Positions 2,049 to 28,785 of a stretch of 64,000 bases of DNA are shown here, piece after piece. Made by a program: the position numbers and the translations under genes. Position 1 is the stretch's first letter. Every line of letters begins with the position of its first letter. This DNA comes from a virus (taxonomy: Duplodnaviria > Heunggongvirae > Uroviricota > Caudoviricetes), in IMG/VR virus record IMGVR_UViG_2562617057_000010, positions 1-64,000 of that record; one strand, 5' to 3'. The notes under the pieces were generated by a model. The model did no database searches. It was not told the DNA's origin and saw only the letters and a list, made by a program, of their open reading frames with translations.

Positions 2049-2307
2049 CCTGTTTACCTCTTTCTCAGGAAGTTTAGTCTCCAGGATTCCCGGGGCGGTT
2101 CAAATTCGTCAGATTTACTGTTTTTCTGCTGCCTCGAATGCCGATGTCTGAAGCACTGATAAGAGTTCTATCTCTTTGATATAGATCTTTTTTTTGATGA
2201 ATTGCACGACATATTATCGTTATGACACCTTCTTGTTAAAGGTATTGTACTCCTCATCTCGATTTTATGATGTGGGCTATGATTGGTTAGTAATAGAGTG
2301 TATCGGT

Positions 2308-2589
2308 ATGCGATGTGGTTTATTAATGGCAATCTGCCTTTGTTTAGTATCTTTTAGTGGATATGCAGCAACAGGAAAGTCTGATGCTCAGATCAAAAAA
2401 GAAATAATTAAAGAATCCATTGAATCTTATCCAGGCAATTGTGCGTGTCCTTATAATCATGCAAGGAATGGTAGTAGATGTGGTGGACGCAGTGCATATA
2501 GCCGTAATGGAGGGTATGACGTGGTATGTTATGAGGGTGATGTTACCGATGAAATGATCCGGCAATGGAAGCAGGAGAATGCTGAGTAA
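2308..2589 (+). CDS. Small secreted cysteine-rich protein, unknown function
   Basis: Internal ATG of 131-aa ORF gives 93 aa with signal peptide MRCGLLMAICLCLVSFSGYAA and 5 Cys in mature part; own terminator downstream. Confidence 0.45.
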   Translation: MRCGLLMAICLCLVSFSGYAATGKSDAQIKKEIIKESIESYPGNCACPYNHARNGSRCGGRSAYSRNGGYDVVCYEGDVTDEMIRQWKQENAE

Positions 2590-2664
2590 TCTCTTTTAAC
2601 AGGTTTGTTGTGCGAGCATTATGTGCCGTTAACGGTACACTAGCTAGTGATAGTTCCAAAAAGA

Positions 2665-2698
2665 AAACCCGCAGTTCTTACGCTGCGGGTTTGTTGTT
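2665..2698 (+). terminator. Rho-independent terminator
   Basis: Stem CCCGCAG/CTGCGGG followed by TTTGTTGTT. Confidence 0.6.
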
Positions 2699-2777
2699 CA
2701 CGTCTGTGAGATAGGGTGCCACTTCAGCCAACCTTAGCAACCGATTGACGGGGGATTGCTCCCCCGTCGCGGTTTCC

Positions 2778-2918
2778 TTACTGTTTACACTGTAAGAACG
2801 CCGCAAACTCCGCTCCCCAGAAGCTCATCCGTATTTCACACAGCGAACCGTGCAGCATCCAGATGATGAGGATTGCCGTCACGCAGAACGTGATGGCCGT
2901 AAGCGATTTTTGCGACAT
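2778..2918 (-). CDS. Hok/Gef-family type I toxin (46 aa)
   Basis: Hand-translated minus-strand ORF MSQKSLTAITFCVTAILIIWMLHGSLCEIRMSFWGAEFAAFLQCKQ; TM helix plus SLCEIR and AAFLxCK motifs as in Hok/HokA; AAGGAG SD 9 nt upstream; below the 60-aa ORF-track cutoff. Confidence 0.6.
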   Translation of the reverse strand: MSQKSLTAITFCVTAILIIWMLHGSLCEIRMSFWGAEFAAFLQCKQ

Positions 2919-3862
2919 AGCGCTTGCTCCTTTGTTGGAGAGGCGCTAACCTATCACTTGCTTAAGGTAGATATGTTAGGGCCTCGGTTAAACAGAAATG
3001 TTTTCCGGGGCCTTTCCACATCCGGCCTTCGGGTATTCCCTCCGACCATCAGCCGAAAGGCACCCGCGATTATTCTACTGATTTCCCGCTTCTCTGCTAC
3101 GTAAAGTTTCACGTCACCCGTTCGGTTCTCCGCGAAAGTTAAAATTTTGCCGCTTTTGTCGCTGCTTTCGTGAGCGGTTTTTGCTTGCGCCTGAAAATAG
3201 TTACACAGTGAAACTGTGTAACGCTGCGCCAAAACGATCCTTGTCCAATGTTTTGTTTTTACCTTTTATTTCATTGCGTTAAGTGGTTCCTGTGCGTGGC
3301 ACTTTGGCGGCATTCAGATCCTTTAAAATGACGAAAGCAAAAAATAGTTTTGTTTTTCATATGGTTAATTTTTCTGTCAGATCCTTTTTTAACGTTAATC
3401 TGGCAAAGCCTGGCAATCTTTGACACTTTGTGCCAGATGGCTTTTTTGTAAAGCGCCAGTGCTGGCGCGATCTGGAGTGTCGTTTTGCGCAAATTTATTT
3501 GGCAAAAAATTTTTATCGTAAAGAGTGCAAGCGCGGGGGGCTTGCGCCCGTGCCGTGTGTTGGGCTCATCATGCCGTGAAATATCCACGTAGCGTGCGTG
3601 TACGCTTTCAGGCGTTACGAGCTGAATTCAGGGTGACTCGCGCGTTTATTTGCTTAAAGCATGTCGCAGAATGCGATACAGCGCGTCTGGTGGGGGGTGT
3701 TTTTCTGGGGGAATGCCCGTCGCGACGGGCTTTCGTCTGGTTCGATGAATGAAATTTATTGATATATGAATAATTTCACGAAATGCTTATTTGTCTGTAT
3801 TTTGTGGCATGATTCTTGAGTGGTAAACCGGGCTGCCTGTGCACCTCTTCTCATCTGTAAAC

Positions 3863-5551
3863 TTACTGCTTAATCACGGTACTGTACTTCGCTTTCAGGT
3901 TGCCTGCCATTGATGCCACCGTGTCTATGCTGCCGCTGTTGGTGGGCTGTGACGACCCGTTGTTGGTATGAGTGTGTTGTGCGGTGAGCTGCGCCAGTTG
4001 CTGAACGGTGTCGCAAAGATCCAGCATGAGGTTAAGTGTGTTGATGGTATTGCTGCCAAACCAGACCTGCGGGGCGATGATCTGTTGCATCTGGCCAGCG
4101 ACGGATTTTTTAATCCGGCCAATCTTTTCTTCCAGCGTTTTCGCCACATTGTGGGTGGTGCTTTCTGTGCTGGTTTGCCACTGGTGAGTAACGTCGAGTT
4201 TAGCGCTGTCGGCGTGCTGTATCAGTTTCTTCGTGGCGGCTACGGCATAGTCACCGTCTGCGATGTGCTGTATGTGGCCGCTCATCAGCTTATGAGTGCC
4301 GAGCACCGTTATGGTGTTGTTGGCCTTTACGGTAATATTACGAGTGGTACTGGTGCGCGTTTCCGTTGTGTTCTGGATGATGCGGTCGGTGGATTTCTCA
4401 CGAATAACCTGATCGGTTTCACGCTGCCATGTGCCATCTGTATGCACACGCTGGAATACCTCTGCGCGTTGCTGTTGTAGTTGTTCGCCGGGCTTTATTC
4501 CCGGCAGACTCTGGCCGCTGGCGTGAGTGCCGGTGATGATGGGTTTATCCGGCCTGCCGTCAACGTGGGCCAGTGTAACTATGGTTCCTGGGGGCGGGTA
4601 CTGGAATATCCCGGATTCATTGCCGGCCATTGGCACAGGAACGGGGACGGCGTTATATACCGGTGTGTTCTTATCGGGGGTGCCGTTCTCGTCGAGCAAC
4701 TGCACATTGACGGCGTAGCGTGGGCGAAATTCATCATGCAAATCCCCCTGGGTTGTGTTTTCAGTTGGTGAGATCACGCGTCCCATGCGTGGAAGGTGGG
4801 TTTTGTTGCCTATCTCGGGGTAAAGGGTTTCGATCTGGCGTTGTACTGGCGACTGACGGCCATCACTCCAGCTAATGATCATGCTGTCGCCCTGTAGCTG
4901 TACCTGATTTATACGGTGATCGTTCATGACCACGCCGGGGCGCATCATGGGAATCGTCTGTATTGTCCAGCCATTTGCTCCGTGATCACCTCTGGTGATA
5001 TCGACCGGCAATCTGGCAGGGCGTTTTGCAAAACGGCAGTCAGCAAAGCTTCCGGCGTAGATGATGCCGTCAACCGACGGATACCAGACGTAATCCGGGA
5101 TACTGAATATGCGGCCAAGCATGGCCATCAGCTGATAACCGTTGCCATTGTGGGTTAGATGAGGGACCGGAGTGGTGGTGTAGCCTGCCTTCGGGAGTTG
5201 TATGCGTAAACCTGTATTGCCTTCAATGTGTCCTGCGACCTGTTTCAGCGTCGGATGCTGCATGGAGATGTTGAGCGGGTATTGCAGAATAGCAGCAGCT
5301 TCGCGCACCATCAGCTTGTGCAGCCCTCTGCCTGTACAACTGTCACTTTCCACATATCCCGAAAACCACTTTACAGGCTGATCGTTGTAACCGATGGACA
5401 GCTCTACGGGTTTGCCGCGTAGCGGGGGAGTATTGTCGGCGGCGTTAATGGTGATAAAGCCGGTTCCCGCGCCGTTGAGACGCAACATGATGTTTTCTTC
5501 CACGACAGGATAACGCCTGCCGTTAATGCAGAGATCACGAATTGGTTTCAT
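3863..5551 (-). CDS. Putative baseplate hub / central spike fusion (gpD-like N-term, gpV/VgrG-like C-term)
   Basis: 562 aa; N-terminal segment resembles the Mu-like gp44 hub in this window (GKPVELSIGY...GYVESDS vs [10 protein letters not shown]...GYIDS); C-terminal repetitive beta-rich region; last gene of the tail operon. Confidence 0.4.
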   Translation of the reverse strand: MKPIRDLCINGRRYPVVEENIMLRLNGAGTGFITINAADNTPPLRGKPVELSIGYNDQPVKWFSGYVESDSCTGRGLHKLMVREAAAILQYPLNISMQHPTLKQVAGHIEGNTGLRIQLPKAGYTTTPVPHLTHNGNGYQLMAMLGRIFSIPDYVWYPSVDGIIYAGSFADCRFAKRPARLPVDITRGDHGANGWTIQTIPMMRPGVVMNDHRINQVQLQGDSMIISWSDGRQSPVQRQIETLYPEIGNKTHLPRMGRVISPTENTTQGDLHDEFRPRYAVNVQLLDENGTPDKNTPVYNAVPVPVPMAGNESGIFQYPPPGTIVTLAHVDGRPDKPIITGTHASGQSLPGIKPGEQLQQQRAEVFQRVHTDGTWQRETDQVIREKSTDRIIQNTTETRTSTTRNITVKANNTITVLGTHKLMSGHIQHIADGDYAVAATKKLIQHADSAKLDVTHQWQTSTESTTHNVAKTLEEKIGRIKKSVAGQMQQIIAPQVWFGSNTINTLNLMLDLCDTVQQLAQLTAQHTHTNNGSSQPTNSGSIDTVASMAGNLKAKYSTVIKQ

Positions 5552-6101
5552 TGCCTGCCGGGCCTATCCAGTTATTGAGTTTGTCTGACATTTTCCAGAA
5601 CCAGCCATGCTCTTCGTTTTTTTCGCCTTTGCCACCTGATTTGACGGCCTGTGCGTGCTGTTCAGCACTCTGATTGCCAGCCGGGCCGCGTCCTGTCGCC
5701 TTTTCGGCACTGCTGAGTTTTTCTTTCAGAGTGAAGTCAACTTTCCATGCCATCAGGCCTGTTTCAGGAGTTGCGCCCACGGCACCGGAAAAAATCCCTT
5801 GCTTCATATTGACCGCTTTAGCATCCATGTTGGCGATGCGGTAAACCTGTTGTGCACCGTTAGCGGCTCTGGCTTCAGCCAGACGAAATAAGCGTGTGAG
5901 TGCTTCCGGCTGGGTGAACGGAATCAGTCCGGAAATCTGCAGCTCCTTGGCTTTTACACCCTGTTCTGAAGTCGCTGTTGATGAGGATTTTCCGGAAGCG
6001 TCTTTGTCTTTGATGGTCAGCTTCACGCTGACACTTAAGCGTTTTAGCGCGATTATCTGACCATTAAGGGCCAGCAGTGGCGTTGTCGTGTTCTGGCTCA
6101 T
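5535..6101 (-). CDS. Phage protein of unknown function (tail/baseplate operon)
   Basis: 188-aa ORF co-oriented and overlapping neighbours in the tail operon; no recognisable motif. Confidence 0.35.
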   Translation of the reverse strand: MSQNTTTPLLALNGQIIALKRLSVSVKLTIKDKDASGKSSSTATSEQGVKAKELQISGLIPFTQPEALTRLFRLAEARAANGAQQVYRIANMDAKAVNMKQGIFSGAVGATPETGLMAWKVDFTLKEKLSSAEKATGRGPAGNQSAEQHAQAVKSGGKGEKNEEHGWFWKMSDKLNNWIGPAGNETNS

Positions 6102-7002
6102 TTTCTGCCTTCGTTATCCAGTTCAGCATCCCGGAAAGATCGCCTGCGAACAGGTGTGCATACGTCAGTGAAGCTGTGGGGTGCGGAATATTTTTCATCA
6201 TTTCCCGGCGGGCTAAAACGGCGTCGCCGGTATGCACGAACGCAAATGCTTTTGCCACTTTATCGCCTGCTCCTGCCAGTTCAGCGATTATCTGTTGCTG
6301 CAACCGTTGACGTTGTGCCTGAAAACCGGATAACGCGTTTTTCAGTGAGTCGACAGAGTTCAGCCCTTCGGTCTTCATAGCGTTAAGCGCGGTGTGGTTA
6401 CTGATGCTGTTCTGTAGTGTGCTGGCAATAAGTGGTTGTGGAGCGGGCAGTCCGTTCTGTGGTGTCGCCGGGATTTGCATTCTGGTGATTGCCTGGGTGA
6501 GCTGTGTTCTTGCGCGTCTTAGCGTCTGCGTCAGAGTGGGTAAAGGGAGTGTGTCTGCCAGTGCTGACAGTTGACGAATAAAATCGTTATTATTGCTGCC
6601 TGTTACCATTATGATGGCGATATCGCTGTTTTCGGTCAGGCCCGGGAGTTTGTTGTTAAGGTGGTTTATTGCGTTGACAGGGCTTAAATACGCACCGTCT
6701 GGCGTAATGTGCCCCGCTTCAACATCCCACGGATGTACGGCCATAGCTGAACATGTTATGGGGGTGATATTACCTGTCGGAAGCATCAGTTTTGCCGGAA
6801 ACCACATATCTGTACCTCTCTTGTCTGCTGTTTTCTGGAATAGCTGCCCGGTCAGAAATGTGCACGGACTGGTGCGTCGCAATTTGTTTCCACTCTGGCA
6901 TGCCGGTGTATTCGCAAAAGGCCTGGCGTTCGGGCCTTGGTTTTCACCCGGGCTTTTGTGGCCATTCAGGTTTTGCAGTGTCCACACGGCTGACCAGAAC
7001 AC
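6064..7002 (-). CDS. Phage protein of unknown function (start uncertain)
   Basis: 312-aa ORF co-oriented in the tail operon; 5' end overlaps the tail fibre assembly gene so the true start is probably internal. Confidence 0.3.
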
Positions 7003-7471
7003 TGTAGCGTTCCCATGCTTCCAGTCGTGTGCGTTCCTCGTCTGTTGCCATATTCAGCCTGACAGCGCGTTCCAGCGGCTGGATGACTGATTCAGCTTCG
7101 GAAAGTAACGCGGCCTTTTGTGATTCGGCCTGTTGTTGCTGCTCGCCTGCCGTATAAATCCGCTTAACCACAGCTCCGTCCTTAAACATCCACTTCCCGG
7201 AGTCATCAGCACGTCGGTTGGCGGTAATATCAGGAACTTCGACAACGCTGAAACCTTCAGGATTAAGCGTTGAGGTATCTTTGGTAATGGCAACAATAAT
7301 ATTATTTTCGTCGTAAACAATCTTTATTGTATCTGGCTGAAAGTTCTTCACTTCCTCATACCAGTTTTTCCCGTCTTCAGCGTAAAGCCAGATGACTCTG
7401 TGCTTCTTTGTTAACTCATACTGTTCCGGCGTTTTAGCGTTACCCGCTTTTATGTTCTTTAAGTGCATCAT
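6944..7471 (-). CDS. Tail fibre assembly protein (Tfa/U-like)
   Basis: 175 aa; near-identical over about 150 aa to the Mu-like U protein at 52477-53004; directly downstream of tail fibre gene. Confidence 0.85.
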
Positions 7472-7472
7472 A

Positions 7473-9479
7473 TTAAATACTCGCTACGTTATACCAGGTG
7501 CCATTAATCAGTTTTTGCAGCGGTCGGTAATACACACCGTTGACGTTATCCGCTGAGTTACGGCCGGTATCCGATATCGATATCCCTGACAGCCCGTGTC
7601 CCGAAGGTGCGCAAAATCTCCACGAAACGGTGTTACTGCCGGGGCTGTAATACATTTCATGACCATACCGCACATCCTGTACCCCCTCAGTTCGATGTTT
7701 ATAGCGGGCATCGAAGTTTCCGTAATTTAACGGAATTACCTGTCCGTTTACAGCGAATGTGATACTACCATCGGTATTTCTCTGGCTGTAGAAATGCCAG
7801 CCGGAATCATCACCAAGCTCTGCAACAACAGGCCTGGATGGATTACCCCACAAATAAAACGCTGCATTTTTCGTGGAGTTGTTGGCGCTGGATAACGTGA
7901 ATTTTTTAGCATTTCCGGCCTGAATATTCTTAAAAGCAATAGTCACACCATTCTGAAAACGGAATACTCGCTGACCATTTGCATAAACATCAAGCAGACC
8001 ATCGCCATTTTGTTTAAACCCGGTATCGTTATCTCCTAAAACGATTGAACTTCCACCTAACGCATTCGTCGTACCAATTCCAAGACAACCATTAATGACG
8101 GCATTAACCAGAATATTTAGTGTATCCCATTTGAGATTCATCAGGTCTTTAACCCGGCCGCCAGCGAGGCGGTGTCTCCATTTGAAATACTCATTGCCGT
8201 TGTCACCTGTTTCAAACCACATGTATGAATCAGTATCGCTGTCGGCATCATTTTTAAAACCAATCTTTGCCCAGTCAGTATTTCGAATCCAGGCAAGGGT
8301 TGAGTCGTTTTCAAAAGTAAGTCCACCGGACAAGGTATCGCCTGTCTTTTGGACTGCGTTACCAGCCTTGTTTACCGTTTCCTGTAAACCAACGTTCTGG
8401 ATAAACAGCGGTTTATCGGGAATATCTGCTCCGTTCTGATTTTTTTGCAGCGCTCCTGTGATGCGGATGTCGTCACCTGCGGCTACAGTGTCCTGCGCGG
8501 TGCCAACATTAAGGGTGGCGCTGTCGCCGAGGCCCATATGCTTTCTGGCATCAGACTGGGCCTGTTCACCTTTGTCAGCAATTTCTTTCAGGTTCCCGTT
8601 ACGGGTCAGGTATTCGCCATCAAGGCGGTCATTTAATGGTTTGCGGGTTTTTCGTATATCGGTGATCTCGCCACTGTCTGATATTGTGGCGATGGGTTCG
8701 ACATAATGGGCAAATCCTGAACTGTCGGTATAGTCGGCTGTTTTCTGACTCGTCAGGCTGAATATGGCTTTATTTTCCCCGGTCAGGGTACCGGTTAATG
8801 CCGCGTCAACATAAACAGTTTGTGAAATTCCGGTGGCGTATGTCAGTGTGCCTTGTTCATCCAGCTCCACACGTAATCCGCGCAGATAGGCAATACCCGG
8901 CGCGAAGGTCGCCTGCCCGGTAGCCTGAGCGGTGAGTTTAAAGGCGTTATTAAAGAACAGGCCAGGCCCGTAGATATCCAGCGCCGCTTTGCGGGTGGCC
9001 TCGTCCATGCCGTGAAGCCGTGCCGTAAAATCAATCTGCCAGGTGCTTACTGGCGTGGTGATGCCGGTTGCGGCGCTGGCTCCGGCGTATTCCATAATTT
9101 CAGAATAAATCAGGGTATTACCCTGTTTGCCGTCTGCGGTTTTTATTTTTTTCTGAGGGTGAAGATATACCACCATACAAAGTGTATTTGTGGTGCTGCT
9201 TACCAGACCCAGCCAGTTAAAAGTAAAATCACCCGTGGACTCCGGCAGGGTAACGGAGTAGGCGACGGTGTTCTCATTTACCATTCCGTTGCGATCAACG
9301 TTCTGGCGGTGAACTATCTGTGCATCGGGGGGCAATGGTTCGTTTTCAGACGGCGTGTCGGCAATGTTCAGATCCGGGATATTTGCAAATACAAACTGAT
9401 CAATGATGATACGGTTGCCGCCTGCGGCTTCCTGCGCTTTCAGGCGCTCAAATGCTGAAGTGATAGCGCTCTGGGTCAT
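7473..9479 (-). CDS. Tail fibre protein
   Basis: 668 aa; C-terminal [11 protein letters not shown]; about 90-aa block shared with the Mu-like S protein; contains a gix-like site. Confidence 0.85.
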
Positions 9480-10020
9480 TTTTCATCTCCGGTGCATAAA
9501 AATAGTGATAGCTGCCATGCCAGTATCCGTGTCCGATAACACAATCCGTGGATGTGATTATCTGAAGATGGTAACGGCGGCAGGTGCGACCGTACTGGCG
9601 AATTATCTGATTGAGTAATGTTGTATTTTCTGAGATCTGGTTGTCTGTCAGGCGCAAAAGAACAACATCCCAGTCTGTGCCTGGCTGGCGCTCCTGAATC
9701 TCCACATAACCGATCCCCAGTCGTTCAAAAATTGCCCTGAATCCCGCCACGCTGCCCGCGTCCTGTGCGTTGATAAAGGCATATTTGACACGCTTTCTGT
9801 ACAGCGTGAGCGGTTCGCCGTCAAAACGGGCTATATCATATTGCCAGGCTGTCAGGTTCAGAATGGATTCCGCACATGTCAGTGGGTCGGTCTGGCTCAG
9901 TGGCCATGTTACCCAGTCGTGCACCTTTCCCCAGAAACGGATAAAGGTGTTTTTCAGGCGGAGCACATCGCCGCGATTCAGCCATGACGGCAACTTAATG
10001 TCCGGTGATTTATCAGGCAT
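9448..10020 (-). CDS. Baseplate protein (gpI / Mu gp48-like)
   Basis: 190 aa, positioned between J-like baseplate gene and tail fibre. Confidence 0.55.
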   Translation of the reverse strand: MPDKSPDIKLPSWLNRGDVLRLKNTFIRFWGKVHDWVTWPLSQTDPLTCAESILNLTAWQYDIARFDGEPLTLYRKRVKYAFINAQDAGSVAGFRAIFERLGIGYVEIQERQPGTDWDVVLLRLTDNQISENTTLLNQIIRQYGRTCRRYHLQIITSTDCVIGHGYWHGSYHYFYAPEMKNDPERYHFSI

Positions 10021-19677: not shown

Positions 19678-19699
19678 CGGATATCCGACCGGATATCCG
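19678..19699. promoter_or_regulatory. Tandem palindromic operator candidates
   Basis: CGGATATCCG twice (19678-19687, 19690-19699), 30 bp upstream of ner start in the c/ner divergent region. Confidence 0.45.
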
Positions 19700-19728
19700 C
19701 GCGGGTAATTTTGTAGGGTAAAGGAAAG

Positions 19729-19980
19729 ATGAGACAAAGAGAAGATCGCGACCGCGATTGGCCTTCGCTAAAGATTCAGCTGGCGCTCAAAGATAACGGG
19801 TGGTCTTCCTTCCGGGAGCTTTCACTCCATGCTGGTTATGCTCAGGATTCACTGAAAGCGGTGGTTCGTACACCGAACAAAAAATACGAACGCGTAATTT
19901 CTGACGCTATAGGTGTACCGCCAGAAATCATCTGGCCCAGCCGGTATCGTAACGATGGATTTATCAGGAAGGCGTCGTGA
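19729..19980 (+). CDS. ner: Ner-like DNA-binding protein
   Basis: 83 aa with Ner/Nlp signature PEIIWPSRY; first gene of early operon. Confidence 0.8.
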   Translation: MRQREDRDRDWPSLKIQLALKDNGWSSFRELSLHAGYAQDSLKAVVRTPNKKYERVISDAIGVPPEIIWPSRYRNDGFIRKAS

Positions 19981-19981
19981 T

Positions 19982-22087
19982 ATGCAGTCGTACGTTACCG
20001 TAAATGACCTGCTCGGCGTACCAGGAATGCCAGCCACCACAAAAGGCATCCGACAGGCGTTACAGCGTTTTTCTCGTGATCTTGGTGACGTTAGTCGCCG
20101 TCGGGAAGGCACAAAAGCCATTGAGTACCACATTGATTGTCTGCCTGAAATAACACGAAAGGCACTGCGTGAACGCTATGTGGAACAGCTGGTGGCTACA
20201 GAGAACAATGTTTCTGAAGTGAAAGCTGTTACCAGAAAAACACGCAATCCTGACGCTGTCCAGGCAATCGAAGCATATCGCGGTTCTCCACAACTGATGG
20301 AAGAACGCCTGAATGCGCTGACCGAAAACCAGCGCCGGGTATCTGAAGCAAGGGCTGCACTGGTGGTGGAGGTGCTGAAGCTGGAAAGCGACGGTAATCT
20401 CGGGCGACTGAAAGCCATCAACTTTCTTGTTGAAAAAGCCCGTAAAGGTGAATTACCGGAGCGCCTGCAACAAGCCGCAGTTAATGCCAATGCAAAGCGT
20501 GGTGCCAATCGCACCATCAGTCGTGACCCGCTTTATCAGTGGGTGCTGAAATACAACCAGTCGCAGAACGCAGCCGAACGACTGCTGTTACTGGCACCAG
20601 GAAAGCGCGACGAAATAAAACCGGAAGAAATTAGCTGGCTACCTGAATTTCTGGCGCAGTATCGCCAGGCGAATGGCAGACCTATGTCAGAAGCCTACGA
20701 GGATTTTGTCGCGGAATGGCAGCGTCGCCATGCTGACGAACCATACATGCTGGAGGTGATGCCTTCTTACGATGTGGTGCGTTATGCCATGAAGAAATTG
20801 CCGGAAGTGGTGAAACAAAAAGGGCGTGTTACCGGCAGTGAATACCGTCAGCTTGAAGGATTCACCCGCCGCGACTGGACAGCTATGCCGGTGAATTATG
20901 TCTGGATTGGTGACGGTCACGGTATGAAGCTGAAATGTGCGCATCCGGTTCACGGGCGTCCATTTTCGCCGGAAGTTACGTTTGTCATTGATGGTGGAAC
21001 CCGGTTTGTGGTTGGCTGGAGTCTTGATCTTGCTGAAAACGTGTTTGCTGTTGCCGGTGCGATACAGCACGGTATTCGTAATCACGGGAAACCCTTCCTG
21101 TATTACTCGGATAATGGTTCCGGTGAAACGGCAGACATGCTGGATAAAGAGATCGTCGGGATTCTGCCCCGTCTGGGGATTAACCACCCCACCGGTATTG
21201 CCGGAAATCCGCAGGGGCGCGGCATTATTGAGCGCCTGAACCGGACGCTGCCGATGCGTATAGCCAGGAGGTATCGCACCTATTTTGGCAGGGGTGCTGA
21301 CCGGGAATCGTTGCGAGTACTTAATCGTGATCTGCGTTCAGCGTTTAATGCCCTGCAACAGGACAAGCCGCTGAATGCTCGCCAGAAATCTGCAATGCGC
21401 GAGCTGCCGTCCTGGTCAGAACTGATTGAGGCTATTCGCGAAGGCGTGGAATGGTACAACAACCGCCCGCATTCTGAACTGCCGATGAAACCAAACGGGA
21501 AGCATTGCAGCCCGGCTGAGTTCAGGAAAAAACGCCTGGCGGAAGAAAACACCGAAATTGAGTGGCTGAGCGATCTTGAGCTGCGCGACATGTTCCGTCC
21601 GATGGTGGAGCGTCCGGTAAGACGCTGTGAAATCAAATGGCTTGGGAATATTTATTACGCGCCGGAGCTGCGTGATGAACATGGTCGCAAAGTGCTTATC
21701 AGCTATGACATTCATGATGCAGAGCGAATTACAGTGCGCCGTAAGGATGGCAGTTTTATTTGTGAGGCGATATGGAACGGCAATAAACGCGCAGCCTTTC
21801 CTGTCAGTGCGGAATATCACAAACAGCAGCAGCGTATTAAAGGAATGCGCAAACGCGCTGAGGGAAAAATTCGTGATGCTGAAGATGAAGGTATTCAGGT
21901 TATTGAACAAAAAACGACAGAACCCTGGCTGGGGAATGTTTATCGCCCTGTGGGTAATGTGGTGACAGTTCAGCCTCAGGCTCCTGAGGAGACGCTTGAT
22001 AATGCATACAACGCTGAGCGTGATGAATATCTGAATCATTCACTGGATATTCTGGAACAGAAAAGACGTAAAAAGCTGTTTAATTAA
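19982..22087 (+). CDS. A: MuA-like DDE transposase
   Basis: about 702 aa from ATG 19982; integrase-core motifs; C-terminus ERDEYLNHSLDILEQKRRKK resembles the MuA C-terminal tail. Confidence 0.9.
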   Translation: MQSYVTVNDLLGVPGMPATTKGIRQALQRFSRDLGDVSRRREGTKAIEYHIDCLPEITRKALRERYVEQLVATENNVSEVKAVTRKTRNPDAVQAIEAYRGSPQLMEERLNALTENQRRVSEARAALVVEVLKLESDGNLGRLKAINFLVEKARKGELPERLQQAAVNANAKRGANRTISRDPLYQWVLKYNQSQNAAERLLLLAPGKRDEIKPEEISWLPEFLAQYRQANGRPMSEAYEDFVAEWQRRHADEPYMLEVMPSYDVVRYAMKKLPEVVKQKGRVTGSEYRQLEGFTRRDWTAMPVNYVWIGDGHGMKLKCAHPVHGRPFSPEVTFVIDGGTRFVVGWSLDLAENVFAVAGAIQHGIRNHGKPFLYYSDNGSGETADMLDKEIVGILPRLGINHPTGIAGNPQGRGIIERLNRTLPMRIARRYRTYFGRGADRESLRVLNRDLRSAFNALQQDKPLNARQKSAMRELPSWSELIEAIREGVEWYNNRPHSELPMKPNGKHCSPAEFRKKRLAEENTEIEWLSDLELRDMFRPMVERPVRRCEIKWLGNIYYAPELRDEHGRKVLISYDIHDAERITVRRKDGSFICEAIWNGNKRAAFPVSAEYHKQQQRIKGMRKRAEGKIRDAEDEGIQVIEQKTTEPWLGNVYRPVGNVVTVQPQAPEETLDNAYNAERDEYLNHSLDILEQKRRKKLFN

Positions 22088-22121
22088 CGTTTACACAAAA
22101 TTTAATTATGAGGTTACTCCG

Positions 22122-23075
22122 ATGAATATTTCTGATATTCGCGAAGAACTACGCACACTTGTAGAAAGTGAAAAAGTCACTTTTAAACAAATTGCTATTG
22201 AGAGTGATATTTCTACCGGGACTGTCAGTGCGTTTATTAACGATAAATACAGCGGCGATAATGAACGTATCGCACAGGTACTGAAGTGCTGGCTTGACGA
22301 TTATCTTGCTGCCGCAGACCTGCCGGAATTGCCTGGTTTTGTTCAAACGCAGACGGTAAAACAAATCTGGACAAGTATACGCTTTGCCAGCCTGACAGAG
22401 AGTATTGCTGTTATCTGCGGTAATCCTGGTGTGGGTAAATCTGAAGCAGCCAAAGAGTATCGCCGTACCAATAATAACGTCTGGATGATCACCATGGCAC
22501 CATCCCGTGTCAGTGTTCTGGAATGTCTTACGGAACTGGCGTTTGAGCTGGGAATGAACGGTATCCCACGCTGCAAGGGGCCGTTATCCCGTGAATTGCG
22601 CCGTCGTCTTGGGGGAACGCATGGGGTGGTTATTGTAGATGAAGCAGACCATCTTGATATTGCGGCGCTGGAAGAACTTCGTTTGTTACAGGAATCAACC
22701 CGTATTGGCCTGGTATTGATGGGTAATCACCATCTTTACACGAATATGACGGGGGGGAGCAAAACGGTTGAGTTTGCCCGTCTGTTTTCGCGCATAGCAA
22801 AACGCACGGCTATCAAAGCGCCCAAAGTTAACGATGTAAAAGCGATTGCGGAAGCCTGGGATGTTACCGCCAAAAAAGAGCAGGAATTCTTACTGGAGAT
22901 TGCACAGAAACCAGGTGCAATTCGCACCATGACTTACACATTACGTCTTGCTGCCATGAATGCTTACGGTAAAGGCAAACGTGTTAACGAAGATTACCTG
23001 CGTGAGGCTTACGAAGAACTGGATCAGGATGTGGATGTTCAGGAACAGTTGGGTATAAGGAGAGCGAAATCATGA
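22122..23075 (+). CDS. B: MuB-like transposition ATPase
   Basis: 317 aa, Walker A GNPGVGKS, Walker [10 protein letters not shown]. Confidence 0.9.
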
Positions 23076-23299
23076 TGTCACGAAATATAAAAATGGCAAC
23101 GGATGCGCAGAACTGGTTACAGGCGCGCGGGAGTCATGTAAATGAATCATATCTCGGCGTGGCACGTCCGATTCTTGAAATCACTTACCCACCGGTGGAA
23201 CTGGTAAAAAGCGCGGTCAGAATTATGGAGCATAAGTCCGGGGTGGCCCGTTCTGTATGGACGGCCCGTCTTAATGGTTGCCAGATTATCTGGAGATAA
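23072..23299 (+). CDS. Small early protein (Kil-like position)
   Basis: 75 aa, start overlaps B stop (ATGA). Confidence 0.4.
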
Positions 23300-23301
23300 C
23301 G

Positions 23302-23532
23302 ATGTGTACTAAAGCTGAAAAATATATTGAATGGGTTAAACGGGTACAGAATAACAATGTGCCTCTGACTGCATTTAATTGCCCCAAATGCAAAGAGCAA
23401 ATTATGACGCAATGCTCACCAGAAAATGAAGTATGGGACTCCTTTGCATGTTGTCCGTGGTGCAGCGCGGTTTTCTTTAAGCAGGTAAAAGGCGCGAAGG
23501 TAAAAGCCAGCGCAGTTATTCAGAATCAATAA
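23302..23532 (+). CDS. Small zinc-ribbon early protein
   Basis: CPKC...CPWC motifs. Confidence 0.4.
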   Translation: MCTKAEKYIEWVKRVQNNNVPLTAFNCPKCKEQIMTQCSPENEVWDSFACCPWCSAVFFKQVKGAKVKASAVIQNQ

Positions 23533-23543
23533 GGAGAAACAAA

Positions 23544-23807
23544 ATGGCAAAGGTAATTATTGAAATTAAAAATACAGTATCTGGAACTAAAGGACGGCAT
23601 TTGCGCACCAGTATTGCGGTAGGTGGTAGTGTGGAAATGGAAGGGGATGAGGCTACACTTGCAGGTCTGGTGGCGTTATTGGTGCTTAACAAAAGCCAGA
23701 AAATAATTAATGAGTCAGCTCATGAAGCCATTGAGATTTTGAAAAACGATGGTGTCATCACAGGTGGCAGTGTCACTGAAATGGCTGTTGAAAAAACATG
23801 TCACTGA
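23544..23807 (+). CDS. Early protein, unknown function
   Basis: 87 aa, tightly packed in early operon. Confidence 0.4.
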   Translation: MAKVIIEIKNTVSGTKGRHLRTSIAVGGSVEMEGDEATLAGLVALLVLNKSQKIINESAHEAIEILKNDGVITGGSVTEMAVEKTCH

Positions 23808-23821
23808 AAGGAACGCTGACA

Positions 23822-24241
23822 ATGAATGTCAAAATCCGAAATGAAATTCAGGCATTAATCCGAATTCAGGAACGCAATAACAACGGTGGTGAATTACGCG
23901 AGTTTATTTGCGCCCGGAAAGTTGATGATTGTGGTGAAAAGACTTACCTGATTGCCTTTGACCATTACAGCATTTGTGCACGTTACTGTGGTGAATCGAT
24001 ATTCTGTGCCATTGTGTATGGTAATGCGTTTGATGTGGATTTATGGGAGTACGTTATGGACCGTGAATACATCTGCGCATCAGACCCGAAAGCCCGTGAG
24101 ATGTGGCAGCGTATCTGGCGCGATTACCGGTTAATGGCAAAAGGCTGGGCACGCTGCTGTTATTCCTCGCTTGCCCTGAAAGCGGTTCAGTTATCGCTGC
24201 GGCATATTCCGGCATCACTGCGCGAGCCTCTGTTGTACTGA
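23822..24241 (+). CDS. Early protein, unknown function (Cys-rich)
   Basis: about 140 aa from ATG 23822. Confidence 0.4.
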   Translation: MNVKIRNEIQALIRIQERNNNGGELREFICARKVDDCGEKTYLIAFDHYSICARYCGESIFCAIVYGNAFDVDLWEYVMDREYICASDPKAREMWQRIWRDYRLMAKGWARCCYSSLALKAVQLSLRHIPASLREPLLY

Positions 24242-24253
24242 GTGGTGACCGGA

Positions 24254-24541
24254 ATGATGTGTAAGCGTAAACGCTGGTCACGCGAAGACCGGGAATTTAT
24301 CGAAGCCAGTGTCGGGAAAATGACCGTCGAGGAAATGGCGAAAAAACTGAACGTTGCCCCAACAGCCCTACAGGCACATGCCAGAAGGCACGGAATATCG
24401 TTGTGTGCATACCGGGTCAGTGAGCACGACAAATATTTGTGTCGTGAACTTTATAAAGAAGGGCTGGCTATTCATGTCATTGCCCAAAAGATGGAATTAA
24501 GCAATCGTGCTGTATCCGGCATTGTATACAGCGAATATTAA
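24254..24541 (+). CDS. Early protein with HTH-like segment
   Basis: about 95 aa from ATG 24254. Confidence 0.4.
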   Translation: MMCKRKRWSREDREFIEASVGKMTVEEMAKKLNVAPTALQAHARRHGISLCAYRVSEHDKYLCRELYKEGLAIHVIAQKMELSNRAVSGIVYSEY

Positions 24542-24559
24542 TTAACAGGAGCTTTATTT

Positions 24560-25084
24560 ATGGCTAAATCAGCAAAACGAATCAGGAACGCCGCAGCGGC
24601 TTATGTTCCGCAATCCCGCGATGCTGTGGTATGTGATATCCGCCGGATTGGGAACCTGCAACGCGAAGCGGCACGACTTGAAACGGAAATGAATGACGCT
24701 ATCGCTGAGATTACGGAGAAATTTGCAGCCCGGATTGCACCGCTTAAAACCGATATTGAAACCCTTTCAAAAGGCGTTCAGGGATGGTGTGAAGCGAACC
24801 GCGACGAACTGACGAACGGCGGCAAAGTGAAGACGGCAAATCTTGTCACCGGCGATGTATCATGGCGTCAACGCCCGCCGTCAGTGAGCATTCGCGGCGT
24901 GGATGCCGTGATGGAAACGCTGGAGCGTCTTGGCCTGCAACGCTTTATTCGCACGAAGCAGGAAATCAACAGGGAAGCGATTTTACTGGAACCGAAAGCG
25001 GTCGCAGGCGTTGCCGGAATTACGGTTAAATCGGGAATTGAAGATTTTTCCATTATTCCGTTTGAACAGGATGCCGGTATTTAA
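24560..25084 (+). CDS. gam: Gam-like DNA-end-binding protein (Ku-like)
   Basis: 174 aa, same length as Mu Gam, strong recalled similarity; GGAG SD. Confidence 0.8.
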   Translation: MAKSAKRIRNAAAAYVPQSRDAVVCDIRRIGNLQREAARLETEMNDAIAEITEKFAARIAPLKTDIETLSKGVQGWCEANRDELTNGGKVKTANLVTGDVSWRQRPPSVSIRGVDAVMETLERLGLQRFIRTKQEINREAILLEPKAVAGVAGITVKSGIEDFSIIPFEQDAGI

Positions 25085-25182
25085 TACCACCATTAATATT
25101 TAATTAATTCACATTCTTTTAATTATTGGCGCGATGCGTCAGGGGACTACTCGCGCCTGAATCAGAACCGGAGAGAATGAAA

Positions 25183-25731
25183 ATGACAGCATGTGCTTAT
25201 TTTAAACTGAGTGACACAGCCGCTAACGCTTATACGATTCGCTGGCTGAAAGATGTTTCTGTTAAGCGTGACAAAATCATCTGCTCATTGCAGCGTGCGT
25301 TTGGCGCAGACGGTGTTTCCCTTGTCAGTAACAGAGGGTATGAACGGGTTGAATGTATCTGGATGAATCAATTAGCGCCGGAATTATGGCGTGGTAAATC
25401 AGACGGACTGTTTATTGGTGGATTTCCGTTTTATGGCGTTGTACCGGATATAACAACACCGGAAGGCCGAAACAATGCGACGCTTATTCAGGAACATGAA
25501 GAGCAACTCCGGAAATATCCCACATTCCCGGTCTGGTTGTGTAATGAACTCGGGGTTGATGTTGTACCCAACATGTTTGATCTCAAATCAGTCTGGACGA
25601 TGCACCACAGCCGTGACGGATTCGGCATTTTGTTTGAGGTGTGCCTGCTGGATGGTGAGGTTAAGGGACCGGTTCCTGCCGAATGCCAGCGCATTAAACA
25701 TTCTGAATTTGTGGCACTGACGGAGGAATAA
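25183..25731 (+). CDS. Early protein, unknown function
   Basis: about 183 aa from ATG 25183 (GGAGAG SD). Confidence 0.4.
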   Translation: MTACAYFKLSDTAANAYTIRWLKDVSVKRDKIICSLQRAFGADGVSLVSNRGYERVECIWMNQLAPELWRGKSDGLFIGGFPFYGVVPDITTPEGRNNATLIQEHEEQLRKYPTFPVWLCNELGVDVVPNMFDLKSVWTMHHSRDGFGILFEVCLLDGEVKGPVPAECQRIKHSEFVALTEE

Positions 25732-25734
25732 CCG

Positions 25735-26265
25735 GTGATTGATGCAAAAGTTCTGAACGGTGTCAGCACATTATTACGGGCTCACGGGCGTCTGACCTGT
25801 GGGGTTCTGGCAGAGAAAATGCAAATGCCACCCTCTGCAATGGTGTATTTCCTGCGTGATGCAGTTGATGCCGGTGCACTGACTGAGCTGAATGGCTTTT
25901 ACGATGTTCCGCGCCCTCGTCCGACGCTGCCTGTAAGACAAAACGCAACAGAGCAGCCTTCTGTTGATGATGCGGTGTGGTGCAACTGGCGTCGCTCATT
26001 ACCCTGGGTGGAAGGTAATACCATCCCCGCGCTGGCAAAAGAGTTTGCGACGGGCGTGCTGACCTGTGAGTCAGTCCACATTGTTGCTGAGGTGGATAAC
26101 AGAATGTGCGAACAGGGAATGCCCCGTTTTGTGATGGCTTATATCGATATCCGGCTGGGGCGTTTTATTTGCAGTTCAAGCGCCTGGAATATCACCGACC
26201 ATGTACTGCGTTATCTCATTCTTGATTGTTCTCCGGCTCCCGCAGCGGTGCAGGAGGTGGCGTGA
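25735..26265 (+). CDS. Early protein, unknown function
   Basis: 176 aa, stop overlaps next start. Confidence 0.4.
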   Translation: MIDAKVLNGVSTLLRAHGRLTCGVLAEKMQMPPSAMVYFLRDAVDAGALTELNGFYDVPRPRPTLPVRQNATEQPSVDDAVWCNWRRSLPWVEGNTIPALAKEFATGVLTCESVHIVAEVDNRMCEQGMPRFVMAYIDIRLGRFICSSSAWNITDHVLRYLILDCSPAPAAVQEVA

Positions 26266-26795
26266 TGTTTTTTAAAACGTCAAATCCCGCAGCACTGCAG
26301 GCATGGGACCAGTTTATGGCGGACTGCCTGAAACTACGCGAAGAAGCCCGCCATCTTGATAAGGTTCTGGGCTGTGGTTGCCGGTCAGTATTCAGCACAG
26401 GTATTGGTGGGCGTCATTTTCATGGCGTGAATTTTCCGGGGAATGAGCGACCTTTCTCGCCGGAGTTGTGGACTGTACAACGCTCCGCATCAGGTAACAG
26501 TTGCAGGCCCAGAACTTCGCGGATACCTGTTCATCTCAGGGAGCAGGCAAGAGAGCTGGCGAAAATATGGCAGGAGAATATTCCGGTCACTTACGCCCGC
26601 ACAGACGCTCTTTTACCCGCACTGGGACTGGATTTCAGCGCAACAATATTCGGGCCGCTCCGGTGGTTCCGTGTTGGTGATGTGATTTACGTCATGACGG
26701 GGATGACACCCGCACAAGGCCGCATGACTGAAATCCTTTCGGACGAATTTATCCGGGCGCAAAAACAGGCAGAGGTAAACAATGGAAAACAATGA
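26265..26795 (+). CDS. Early protein, unknown function
   Basis: about 176 aa from ATG 26265 (AGGAGG SD). Confidence 0.4.
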   Translation: MFFKTSNPAALQAWDQFMADCLKLREEARHLDKVLGCGCRSVFSTGIGGRHFHGVNFPGNERPFSPELWTVQRSASGNSCRPRTSRIPVHLREQARELAKIWQENIPVTYARTDALLPALGLDFSATIFGPLRWFRVGDVIYVMTGMTPAQGRMTEILSDEFIRAQKQAEVNNGKQ

Positions 26796-26964
26796 AACAT
26801 CGTATTCGTGGCTGGGGAAATTTACCTCGGTGAAACAGGAATGCCCGACCTGCGGGAATGAATCCCCTGAATATCTGAAAGAGTGCCCTCATTGTGGCGG
26901 GCAGAAATGCAACCACTGCGATATGGGCGATGACACGGCGTGCATGAATTGTGAAGGTGAGTGA
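26782..26964 (+). CDS. Small zinc-ribbon protein
   Basis: 60 aa with CPTC...CPHC...CNHC...CMNC. Confidence 0.4.
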   Translation: MENNETSYSWLGKFTSVKQECPTCGNESPEYLKECPHCGGQKCNHCDMGDDTACMNCEGE

Positions 26965-27274
26965 TATGAATAATGGTGTATTTTCAAAATCAGAAGAGCT
27001 TGCCGCCCTGCTGATTGCCGGTGGTTTGCCGAAAAAAGAAGTGCATGACTTTGTGAATTTTGTATATGAGACGTCTCATGAAAAAGCTATTGATGAGGTC
27101 ATGGCGTACCGGTTTGGCATTATTGCTGAGTCACTGAGTCCTCACTGGATTATTGAAAATCTCCGCGCTATTGCTGATGGCAACGATAAATCAGCAGCCG
27201 TTGCTGCACTGGATGTGTTACGGCAAATGAGTCTGAAATTTTATCCTGAATTTATTCTGAGGGCCGCAAAATGA
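26951..27274 (+). CDS. Early protein, unknown function
   Basis: 107 aa. Confidence 0.4.
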   Translation: MKVSDMNNGVFSKSEELAALLIAGGLPKKEVHDFVNFVYETSHEKAIDEVMAYRFGIIAESLSPHWIIENLRAIADGNDKSAAVAALDVLRQMSLKFYPEFILRAAK

Positions 27275-27573
27275 ACAATGAAGATAAATTTACTCCCCTT
27301 AATATTGATAACGTCATGGCTGAAAAAGGGATGCTGGAACGTGTTCGCGCTATCGTTGAATATGGTATTAAGCATAATCTCACCGCCAGAGAAGTCCGTG
27401 ACATTATCAACCGCGAAATGAATCGTCTGGAAACAGTAGTGGCACTGCAAAATGAAACAGCCCGCGAGGAGTACATCCGCCGCAGGCTGGGGTTATCAGA
27501 CCAGGATATTGTTACTGACGCTCATGTGTTTGGGGCTTTTGAGATCCGTCAGCATCTGGGTCTAACGAACTGA
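27271..27573 (+). CDS. Early protein, unknown function
   Basis: 100 aa. Confidence 0.4.
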   Translation: MNNEDKFTPLNIDNVMAEKGMLERVRAIVEYGIKHNLTAREVRDIINREMNRLETVVALQNETAREEYIRRRLGLSDQDIVTDAHVFGAFEIRQHLGLTN

Positions 27574-27778
27574 TAATGTCTTCCATGATCTTTGACAGTT
27601 GCATGTTTTCGCGGCGGCTTGTTCTTATTGCAGGCGCATCTTTTAAAATCTCTGCTGAAGAGCTGAAAATGGCCTGGCCCTCTTCTGCGGTGATGATCGC
27701 CTTCTTCACCAGAAGGCGCACCAGTGCTGATGCAATCGCATAACCTGCAACATCATAAGGTTGTACATTATTTTCCAT
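27512..27778 (-). CDS. Reverse-oriented small protein inside the early region
   Basis: 88 aa on minus strand with GAGAGGA SD 7 nt upstream of ATG; only opposite-strand ORF with a good RBS in the early operon. Confidence 0.4.
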   Translation of the reverse strand: MENNVQPYDVAGYAIASALVRLLVKKAIITAEEGQAIFSSSAEILKDAPAIRTSRRENMQLSKIMEDIISSLDPDADGSQKPQTHERQ

Positions 27779-27847
27779 AAAATCCTCTCTGATTGATGTG
27801 TAAATTCAGGCGGTGTTGCAGCACCGCCTCTTTCCGGAGGTACGATC

Positions 27848-28399
27848 ATGAATCGCACATCCCTGATTAAATTAATCCATGTCGCCCGTCGGGAGCTACA
27901 ACTCGACGACGACACTTACCGCGCTTTTCTGATGCAGAAAACGGGCAAAATCAGTTGCCGCGAGCTGACGGTTACGCAACTGGAACAGGTGCTCAATGCC
28001 ATGAAAGAACGCGGCTTTAAGAAGCTGAATAAATACCCCCGTCGCCGCTTTAAGGAACATGTCACACCCCGTGAGAAGGTGTATAAAATCTGGCAGCAGA
28101 TGGCAGAAGACGGTTTTATTACCGATGGCGGTGATGTGGCGCTGGACAGATATGTTCAACGCCTGACCGCGAAACGCAACGGCGGACAGGGTGTTTCCAC
28201 ACTGGCGTGGTGTCATGGCGACACGCTGCTGACAGTCCTCGAAACACTCAAGCAGTGGCACATCCGCTGTATTCGTGAAGCCTTTTCCCGTCACGGGCTT
28301 CCGTTGCCGGTCAGTCCGTCCGGTCGTGAACTGCGCGGCTATGATGCCATGACGGCGGCTTATGCCCATGCCAGAAAGACACGGAGGATGGCACAATGA
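27848..28399 (+). CDS. gemA: GemA-like early protein
   Basis: 183 aa, GGAGG SD, immediately upstream of mor, matches Mu gemA size and position. Confidence 0.65.
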   Translation: MNRTSLIKLIHVARRELQLDDDTYRAFLMQKTGKISCRELTVTQLEQVLNAMKERGFKKLNKYPRRRFKEHVTPREKVYKIWQQMAEDGFITDGGDVALDRYVQRLTAKRNGGQGVSTLAWCHGDTLLTVLETLKQWHIRCIREAFSRHGLPLPVSPSGRELRGYDAMTAAYAHARKTRRMAQ

Positions 28400-28785
28400 C
28401 GGAAGATTTATTTGGTGATTTGCAGGATGACACCATCCTGGCACATCTTGACAATCCCGCCGAGGATACGTCACGCTTTCCGGCACTGCTGGCGGAGCTG
28501 AACGATTTACTGCGCGGGGAATTGTCCCGGCTGGGTGTTGATCCTGCCCATTCACTGGAGATTGTTGTGGCTATCTGTAAGCATCTGGGCGGCGGTCAGG
28601 TCTACATTCCACGCGGTCAGGTTCTGGACTCGCTGATTCGGGATTTGCGTATCTGGAATGATTTTAACGGTCGCAACGTCAGCGAACTGACCACCCGTTA
28701 TGGTGTCACTTTCAATACGGTTTACAAGGCCATTCGCCGGATGCGACGGCTGAAATACCGCCAGTACCAGCCCTCACTTCTGTAA
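28396..28785 (+). CDS. mor: Mor-like middle-operon transcription activator
   Basis: 129 aa, Mor/C family, C-terminal HTH. Confidence 0.85.
   Translation: MTEDLFGDLQDDTILAHLDNPAEDTSRFPALLAELNDLLRGELSRLGVDPAHSLEIVVAICKHLGGGQVYIPRGQVLDSLIRDLRIWNDFNGRNVSELTTRYGVTFNTVYKAIRRMRRLKYRQYQPSLL

Follow-up and report, generated by a model that had tools for sequence, protein, structure and literature searches.

The G segment of phage Mu holds two tail-fibre cassettes, S-U and S'-U', together with the crossover sites gixL and gixR, and an enhancer lies in gin. Homology of the P2 genes H/G to S/U of Mu and P1 was reportedly described by Haggard-Ljungquist and colleagues in 1992 as horizontal transfer of fibre genes between phages that are otherwise unrelated. 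The locus analysed here lies in the first 64,000 nucleotides of the IMG/VR viral record IMGVR_UViG_2562617057_000010 (the window). A P2-like and a Mu-like prophage in this window each carry a tail-fibre gene followed by a gene for a tail-fibre assembly chaperone (Tfa), and these genes share DNA in inverted orientation and a gix-like site in each fibre gene. An earlier note on the same DNA had taken this arrangement as modular exchange of host-range genes and as a substrate for inversion by RecA or an invertase. The reading preferred here, with a probability of about 0.85, is that the shared blocks are vertically inherited, diverged copies of a circulating cassette, that the Mu-like element has lost gin and gixR, that the P2-like site is an orphan, and that there is no working switch.

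The Mu-like element resembles the Mu G segment and its Gin system in having gixL at the same codons and U and U' as an inverted pair, and its gp48-S-U-U'-Sv'-com-mom region aligns with that of Mu. Unlike Mu, it lacks gixR, the N-terminal portion of Sv' and, apart from ~9 codons, gin, and cannot invert; its early region and its ends also differ. The P2-like prophage is like P2, with its H and G genes, in combining a P2-family fibre with a Mu/P1-type distal part, an orphan site relic and a Tfa gene directly downstream. It differs in that the homology of P2 to the first shared block (block A) starts just after the site core, at query position 111, that the window core is TT against TC in P2, and that the tail module is of HP1 type (HP1_ORF34, DUF2590). 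The same hinge block and Tfa genes are present in P88 (Xuanwuvirus, Peduoviridae), the P1 C segment with Cin, P7 and the e14 P segment with Pin, and P88 shows that a P2-family chassis is able to carry a complete switch. These Din-family systems have two sites with the same core, two opposed cassettes and an adjacent invertase, whereas the P2-like prophage of the window has one site, one cassette and no invertase.

Other parallels concern how such genes move. In the mosaics that De Paepe et al. 2014 (PMC3945230) ascribe to relaxed homologous recombination, as here, conserved flanks surround a divergent insert; in the P2-like lineage of the window it is tip and hinge that form a divergence hot spot, with mosaic haplotypes. 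In that study Rad52-like recombinases drive the exchange of diverged DNA among temperate phages and defective prophages. Distal parts of P2 H have been swapped experimentally for parts of P1 S (PMC9942202). PinQ of the Qin prophage, which acts on e14 to give StfE2 (PMC12529663), is a prophage invertase working on the fibre-gene sites of another prophage. Its two target sites, however, are cognate and belong to one 1.8-kb segment, whereas the sites of the window are in two prophages, with unlike cores and no invertase in the window. Two Stx-converting phages, LC727881 and LC727895, carry a 'region of the inserted Bacteriophage Mu-like phage' and are alike in having a Mu-like element nested in a resident prophage, although the host prophage there is a lambdoid Stx phage and not a member of the P2 family.

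The fibre genes, their tfa genes and the shared blocks are as follows.

7473..9479, minus strand: H-like tail-fibre gene (H) of the P2-like prophage, 668 amino acids (Pfam Phage_tail_fib N-terminal domain and Gp34_trimer; PHROG tail-fibre families)
6944..7471, minus strand: tail-fibre assembly chaperone gene, G/U-like Tfa, 175 amino acids (Pfam Caudo_TAP, E 7e-37)
50962..52473, plus strand: tail-fibre gene S of the Mu-like prophage, 503 amino acids (Pfam Phage_fiber_2), fixed in an expressed, G(+)-like orientation
52477..53004, plus strand: U, Tfa of the Mu-like prophage, 175 amino acids (Pfam Caudo_TAP)
8100..8445, minus strand: block A, P2-like copy, the fibre 'hinge', spanning H residues ~345-460; its homologue in Mu is the start of the Sv part
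51417..51762, plus strand: block A, Mu-like copy (repeat search and blastn)
6930..7533, minus strand: block B, P2-like copy (repeat search and blastn)
52414..53018, plus strand: block B, Mu-like copy (repeat search and blastn)

Block A aligns 8445-8100 with 51417-51762 over 346 nt without gaps, at 87.9% identity (blastn of the two window regions); a whole-window repeat search returns its inverted arms as 8100-8450 and 51412-51762 (351 nt, 87%). Block B has a core of 467 nt at 89% (inverted arms 6930-7396 and 52552-53018, same repeat search) and extends at lower identity over 606 nt (7533-6930 against 52414-53018, 83%, blastn). It comprises the last ~20 fibre codons, the whole of tfa and half of the downstream hairpin, the start of a terminator hairpin. 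The earlier note had estimated a common fibre stretch of ~270 bp at 85-90% identity and ~450 bp common to the two Tfa genes, inverted and ~43 kb apart, and had proposed a pairwise nucleotide alignment as a check. Both searches confirm the orientation and the distance, the extents given above differ slightly from both estimates, and the alignment shows homology of both blocks at the DNA level. The mirrored spurious open reading frames (ORFs) that it listed, 8141-8326 on the minus strand and 51518-51721 on the plus strand, are also present and are out of frame.

The mismatches in the block B core are concentrated in third codon positions (39/52). Perfectly matching runs reach 56 bp once in block A (8227-8282) and 59 (7311-7369), 55 (7147-7201) and 35 bp in block B. 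H and S are in a common reading frame across block A. At the protein level H 296-474 and S 88-281 are 62% identical, rising to 85% inside block A, and the two Tfa proteins, each with a Caudo_TAP match at about E 1e-36, agree in 89% of residues along their full length. The receptor-binding C-termini had been described as different. This is only partly so, as the final ~100 residues of the tips (H 569-668 against S 412-503) are still 40% identical in amino acids and the Tfa proteins are alike throughout.

Each copy of block A contains one gix-like site, at exactly the positions that had been claimed.

8379..8404, minus strand: orphan gix-like site of the P2-like prophage, TTATCCAGAACG TT GGTTTACAGGAA, within the codons FIQNVGLQE
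51458..51483, plus strand: gixL of the Mu-like prophage, TTATCCAAAACG TC GGTTTACAGGAA, its partner gone

These two are the only matches in the window to the Mu gixL 26-mer at three or fewer mismatches (0 expected in shuffles), the P2-like site having 3 mismatches and the Mu-like site 1; position 12 of the latter is G, against C in Mu. The reference 26-mer was checked on Mu itself, where TTATCCAAAACCTCGGTTTACAGGAA is found at both annotated G-segment boundaries of AF083977. The Mu-like site is likewise within FIQNVGLQE codons, and the CAA/CAG and GTC/GTT differences between the two sites are both synonymous. The GTC/GTT change is the one that turns the crossover core from TC, at 51470-51471 in the Mu-like element, to TT. 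A degenerate search of the window for partner sites (AAACCNNGGTTT, 1 mismatch) returned 3 matches against 2.5 expected, which is chance level, and the window search found no second crossover site, neither a gixR after Sv' nor a site near the P2-like tfa.

The Mu-like element and the remains of its inversion region are listed below.

18727..55094, plus strand: Mu-like transposable prophage (repressor, transposases A/B, Com/Mom, end motifs, alignment to Escherichia coli VL40)
53033..53566, minus strand: U', alternative Tfa, 177 amino acids, silent (Pfam Caudo_TAP)
53569..54004, minus strand: Sv' remnant, C-terminal ~145 codons only (alignment to Mu, L003, up to position 3707; PHROG tail-fibre matches)
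53981..54036, plus strand: deletion junction and last ~9 gin codons, IENDDRIN* (blastn against Mu AF083977)
54134..54968, plus strand: com and mom (Pfam Mom, E 4e-75; Zn_ribbon_Com gene call in L005)

The element is a Mu-like phage by its PHROG transposase (E 3e-194), DNA transposition protein, repressor, Mom/Com and end repeats. From gp48 to mom it matches Mu, D108 and PhiR68_1 at identities between 88.5% (blastn, S-to-Sv' stretch) and ~93% (megablast), and this region is ~1.1 kb shorter than in these phages. What is absent from the window, by blastn with AF083977, is Mu L003 ~3708-4817, that is, the N-terminal part of Sv', gixR and gin bar its extreme 3' end. Searches of the window by tblastn with Mu Gin and the P88 invertase found only the gin remnant (~54011-54036), and Pfam/PHROG annotation of the neighbouring genes found no serine invertase. 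A recombinase gene is retained in all close Mu-like relatives among the matches listed for complete E. coli genomes. The end points of the deletion share a short ATAAACACCGC-like motif; a microhomology-mediated origin of the ~1.1-kb deletion is suggested.

The Mu enhancer is said to have been placed in the 5' part of gin by Kahmann and colleagues in 1985. The gin DNA concerned, within Mu L003 4297-4817, is absent from the window, and the enhancer, at that position, was presumably lost together with the deleted part of gin. S-U is fixed in the expressed orientation because gixR and nearly all of gin have been deleted. The segment is thereby frozen, with U' and the Sv' stump silent and the site in S left as a gixL that has no partner. 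U' is 57% identical to U in amino-acid sequence (inverted repeat I3, 70%). The element keeps S-U and U' but only a truncated Sv', and the P2-like prophage has a single cassette.

Relatives of both prophages bear on how the sites should be read. Among the Mu-like viral contigs that hold both crossover sites (n=8), all eight have them inverted with TC/TC cores, and seven of the eight have an adjoining Gin homologue. Pairs of TC/TC type are also found in Mu, SfMu, P88 and the Mu-like prophage of strain JNEC-KY180. The P2-like lineage, recognised by baseplate protein I at 99-100% identity, has an identical single TT site in 6/6 viral contigs, and in the two that extend 4-5.6 kb downstream of tfa there is no partner site and no invertase. 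The P2 H gene has a comparable lone relic, TTATCGAATATC TC GGTTTACAGGAA; the P2-family phage P88 has the same left site as P2 H together with a right site and an invertase. The P2-like site of the window is best read as an orphan relic embedded in codons, without a partner or a cognate invertase, and it is likely to be maintained only as coding sequence.

A TT core, TTATCCAAAACC TT GGTTTACAGGAA, also occurs in two IMG/VR Mu-like contigs (L009 14115-14140 and L017 11-36), whose partner sites are outside the available DNA. Inheritance of the P2-like core from a TT-core Mu lineage was considered; L009 and L017 are G(-), and their upstream sequence is 87.8% identical, like all others, which leaves this origin unsupported. 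A separate Mu-like contig, L012 (IMGVR_UViG_2690316161_000025), has two Gin genes, two U/U' sets ~8 kb apart and three gix sites, and could represent a duplicated G region, a concatemer or an assembly repeat.

The earlier note had assumed two prophages lying apart, and had overlooked the loss of gin and gixR and the difference between the two cores. When the window is aligned with E. coli VL40, where the P2-family prophage is uninterrupted, the two prophages prove to be nested, the Mu-like prophage (18727-55094, 36.4 kb) lying inside the 104-bp spacer between genes L and M of the P2-family prophage, whose two parts flank it.

2101..18726, minus strand: left part of the P2-family prophage, with head-completion, tail, lysis, baseplate and fibre genes, 99.46% identical to VL40 over 16,626 bp
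55095..64000, both strands: right part of the P2-family prophage, with M, N and O on the minus strand, P and Q on the plus strand, and early genes; it continues beyond the window

VL40 and E. coli CFSAN029787 have the same prophage, 99% identical and uninterrupted, with gene L followed directly by gene M, and in both, as in the window, it is at the glyW-cysT-leuZ tRNA locus. The host of the two nested prophages is enteroinvasive E. coli (EIEC) 53638, serotype O144, contig AAKB02000001.1. The minus strand left of the Mu-like repressor carries the P2-family genes for head completion, tail, lysis, baseplate and fibre together with tfa, and right of the Mu-like mom are small terminase, capsid and scaffold genes of P2 type. 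The tetranucleotide CTTT is present on both flanks of the insert (18723-18726 and 55095-55098), and the Mu-like ends each have three TTCAAGATAA motifs, in inverted orientation. The target duplication of Mu is 5 bp; the duplication here is perfect over 4 bp only. The nesting follows from the VL40 alignment and the CTTT duplication, and the insert is the product of transposition into the P2-family prophage. It is the transposition of the Mu-like phage into the L-M spacer that made the two fibre operons face one another at a distance of 43 kb. The insertion doubled the length of the host prophage. It probably cuts off L, and all tail genes downstream of it, from the late promoter of O-N-M-L and probably cripples the P2-family prophage.

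The left end of the Mu-like element has some features of its own. A megablast search of 50,697 phage records gave no match for its first ~1.8 kb (18727-20560), which holds the left end, the repressor and the 5' part of transposase A. For the rest of A and for B, identity to Mu and to Mu-like phages of Yersinia reaches only 79-87%. The TTCAAGATAA motifs, of which each end has three, are unlike the end motifs of Mu.

The cassette has many relatives. Block A of the P2-like prophage matches Mu, D108, P1, P7, P2, Wphi, SfMu, P88 and several Yersinia phages at 83-89% identity (85% to P2 H, 89% to SfMu), and the hinge and tfa are homologous at the DNA level to Mu S/U, P1 S/U and P2 H/G, as expected of the P1-P2-Mu cassette. 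The first 120 nt after the P2-like site are 95.8% identical to another Mu-like contig, L021. The P2-like tip is found in the Mu-like S gene of JNEC-KY180, where the homology extends to 676 nt at 84%, and, at 92-95% DNA identity, on a third myovirus chassis that is linked to ipaH and has another set of baseplate genes. This third chassis, with baseplate J and DUF2612 beside ipaH effector genes, was seen in RMDEC465 (L034 5001-5628) and FDAARGOS_944 (L035 5005-5628). In E. coli RMDEC465 an IS4 element interrupts the tfa gene after the shared tip; the annotation of FDAARGOS_944 breaks the fibre gene into two fragments and has a partial DNA invertase gene ~5 kb away.

Variation within the P2-like lineage is concentrated in the same region. 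The uninterrupted prophage of VL40 has the same block A allele as the window, with 3 differences. Over 16.6 kb of prophage, 38 of the 90 differences between the window and VL40 fall in the 925 bp of tip and hinge (7438-8362), at 4.1% against 0.33% elsewhere. Nine copies of block A from this lineage have two haplotypes of the 8190-8246 patch, one of which agrees with the Mu-like consensus, and viral contig L011 is intermediate (recombinant) between the two block A haplotypes. Patchy recombination within the blocks is thus apparent between lineages when these sequences are compared. The homology of other phages to block A breaks at or beside the crossover site (query positions 97, 111 and 115). 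An idea of invertase-associated fibre exchange, and recent mosaics in a 'P1-P2-Mu group', are found in PMC3945230, and the breakpoints near the crossover site would fit the old idea that invertases had a role in ancient exchanges. In the H gene of the window, Mu-type sequence reaches ~41-50 bp upstream of the site; therefore this junction was not made at the core.

These comparisons also decide what becomes of the proposed exchange between unrelated phages. That part of the claim which concerns families of phages is sustained, as DNA homologues are present in two chassis and the module has been exchanged between families; exchange between these two residents is not. If the similarity had come from recent direct transfer or gene conversion between the co-resident prophages, their physical proximity would be in keeping with it, and at 2/3 of the block A positions that differ from VL40 the window agrees with the Mu-like copy. 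However, one of these two matching positions is a change private to VL40/L020, not to the window. The neighbours are only 87-89% identical, and other sequences are as close as the neighbour (87.9%) or closer (L021, 95.8% over 120 nt; SfMu, 89%). The same H allele is present in VL40 and in a viral contig, neither of which shows the nested Mu-like element. Site-by-site comparison with uninterrupted relatives revealed no tract pointing to the neighbour, and recent conversion between the residents was rejected as extremely unlikely. The idea that the nested arrangement is an assembly artefact, a collapse or misjoin at the repeated fibre blocks, has next to no probability. Repeats of 350-600 bp are able to mislead short-read assemblers, but the phage-phage junctions are outside the repeats, in the L-M spacer; they coincide with Mu-type ends, each with three terminal binding-site motifs, and with the duplicated CTTT, and both flanks are colinear with the uninterrupted relative at 99.4-99.5%.

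The remaining alternatives concern inversion of the 43-kb interval. Two live sites recombined by a Din-family invertase of the Gin, Pin or Cin type supplied in trans would invert it and give chimeric fibres. The two sites are inverted and both are close to Mu gixL, TT cores are used by some Mu-like phages, and a crossover in block A, modelled with its junction ~120 bp downstream from the core, would join the two genes in frame, with chimeric products of 475 and 696 amino acids. The substrate for an invertase that the earlier note saw here is nevertheless not borne out, and such a switch has hardly any likelihood. The window has no invertase, gixR is deleted, the deletion takes the part of gin that should hold the enhancer, and the P2-like site is an orphan in all relatives examined. 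The cores are TC and TT, whereas the two cores are the same in all paired systems examined. With Hin, one altered base in a hix core is enough to prevent ligation in the inverted, recombinant orientation (PMC4817059), and wild-type Hin needs Fis with its enhancer and supercoiled DNA (PMC4817059; PMC3798978). The TC x TT mismatch would block productive inversion even with an invertase elsewhere in the genome. An inverted site pair bounding a segment, with identical 2-bp cores and an adjacent serine invertase, was not found in the window. Inversion of the 43 kb would also split the Mu-like element and put its ends in direct orientation, which would disable its transposition. RecA-driven inversion is possible in principle from the extent of the repeats: homology covers 346-467 nt with perfect runs of 56, 59, 55 and 35 bp, and both junctions would be in frame. 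That it flips the interval at appreciable frequency, leaving the strain a mixture of isomers, is nonetheless improbable. The blocks are 11-12% divergent, and 4% divergence already lowers recombination 10,000-fold in E. coli plasmid assays (PMC3945230). One arrangement is on record, and the exact H and S proteins are found on the source contig only, a look-up that is uninformative for isomers. Among 5,426 complete E. coli genomes the N-terminal part of the P2-like fibre is present in 6 only, always with its own tip, so that no chimera on the P2-like chassis is seen. The P2-like tip at 95% identity or more on a Mu chassis was found in none of the complete E. coli genomes (the synthetic junctions themselves were not searched). 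There is, in addition, no conversion tract pointing to the co-resident copy.

Several points weigh against the reading of the blocks as diverged copies with no working switch. Outside the 64-kb window, EIEC 53638 may have a gene for a Din-family invertase that brings its own enhancer, an invertase fragment lies beside the ipaH prophage of a related EIEC-type strain, and action in trans across prophages is documented for PinQ of Qin on the e14 P segment (PMC12529663). A TT core is not necessarily dead, as it occurs in the two Mu-like contigs L009 and L017. The perfect runs of 56-59 bp exceed the minimal RecA pairing segment of 31-34 bp (PMC3945230), and inversion isomers formed by RecA at low frequency may be compatible with a single assembly.

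The history suggested for the diverged, vertically inherited blocks is the following. Myoviruses of the Mu, P1 and P2 types circulate a cassette in which the hinge is conserved, the receptor-binding tip varies and a gene for the Tfa chaperone follows; its conserved flanks provide the homology at which occasional homologous recombination or gene conversion swaps tips between phages. A Mu-like phage carrying one copy transposed between L and M of the P2-family prophage at leuZ, and the late operons therefore run in opposite directions. The site at 51458-51483 is the true left crossover site of the G segment in the Mu-like element, from which the ~1.1-kb deletion took gixR and nearly all of gin, and the TT core at 8379-8404 is incompatible with the Mu-like TC core. 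There is no sign of exchange between the two residents, nor of active inversion of the 43 kb. The inverted repeats are genuine, yet they amount to mosaicism of a kind ordinary in phages, namely the classical P1-P2-Mu mosaic of tail fibres, and as such are already known in kind. The nesting, the loss of gin and the orphan TT-core site of this lineage are modest, strain-level additions.

The P2-family prophage belongs to the Peduoviridae by its head block (Q-P / O-N-M-L), capsid, terminase, baseplate J/I, and fibre and tfa genes. Pfam matches include Baseplate_J, Tail_P2_I, HP1_ORF34 and DUF2590 in the left part and Phage_term_smal, Phage_cap_P2 and Phage_GPO in the right part, which is 99.4% identical to VL40; portal, terminase, GPL, GpR and GPA were found in L004/L005. 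The H-like gene has a 99% identical counterpart in VL40 and CFSAN029787. Directly downstream of tfa is a gene for 247 amino acids (6064-6807, minus strand); it has no Pfam match, and its PHROG matches are all to families of unknown function (phrog_1677, E 2e-41). Next come an HP1_ORF34-type baseplate gene and a baseplate/Vgr-like gene of 562 amino acids, an order of HP1 type and unlike P2. Between 3001 and 3500, from the prophage end genes to a hok/gef-like gene, there are ten clustered differences from VL40, against 0-3 in neighbouring 500-bp bins. An IS3-family insertion sequence (793-2100) separates tRNA-Leu from the end of the P2-like prophage, with HTH_Tnp_1 and rve ORFs at 835-2048, ends TGAACCGC...GCGGTTCA and a short AATT-like flanking duplication; it is absent from VL40 and CFSAN029787.

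That orphan relics of the 8379-8404 type in P2-family fibre genes are live secondary targets for Din-family invertases acting in trans is very doubtful. If it were true, a cell with another TT-core site could make inversions between prophages that give chimeric fibres or fibre-derived decoy proteins, and the precedent of PinQ and e14 would be widened from one segment to pairs of prophages. As it stands, the locus is a clean worked example of host-range cassettes bounded by conserved 'linker' sequences, the fibre hinge and the chaperone gene, in Mu-, P1-, P2-type and ipaH-linked chassis. It indicates that look-alikes of crossover sites within fibre genes are often relics, and for annotation that a gix-like 26-mer is no proof of an inversion switch unless a same-core partner and an invertase accompany it. 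In EIEC 53638 itself the Mu-like phage is locked to one fibre, and this, together with the nesting, may help studies of prophage content or phage susceptibility in the strain.

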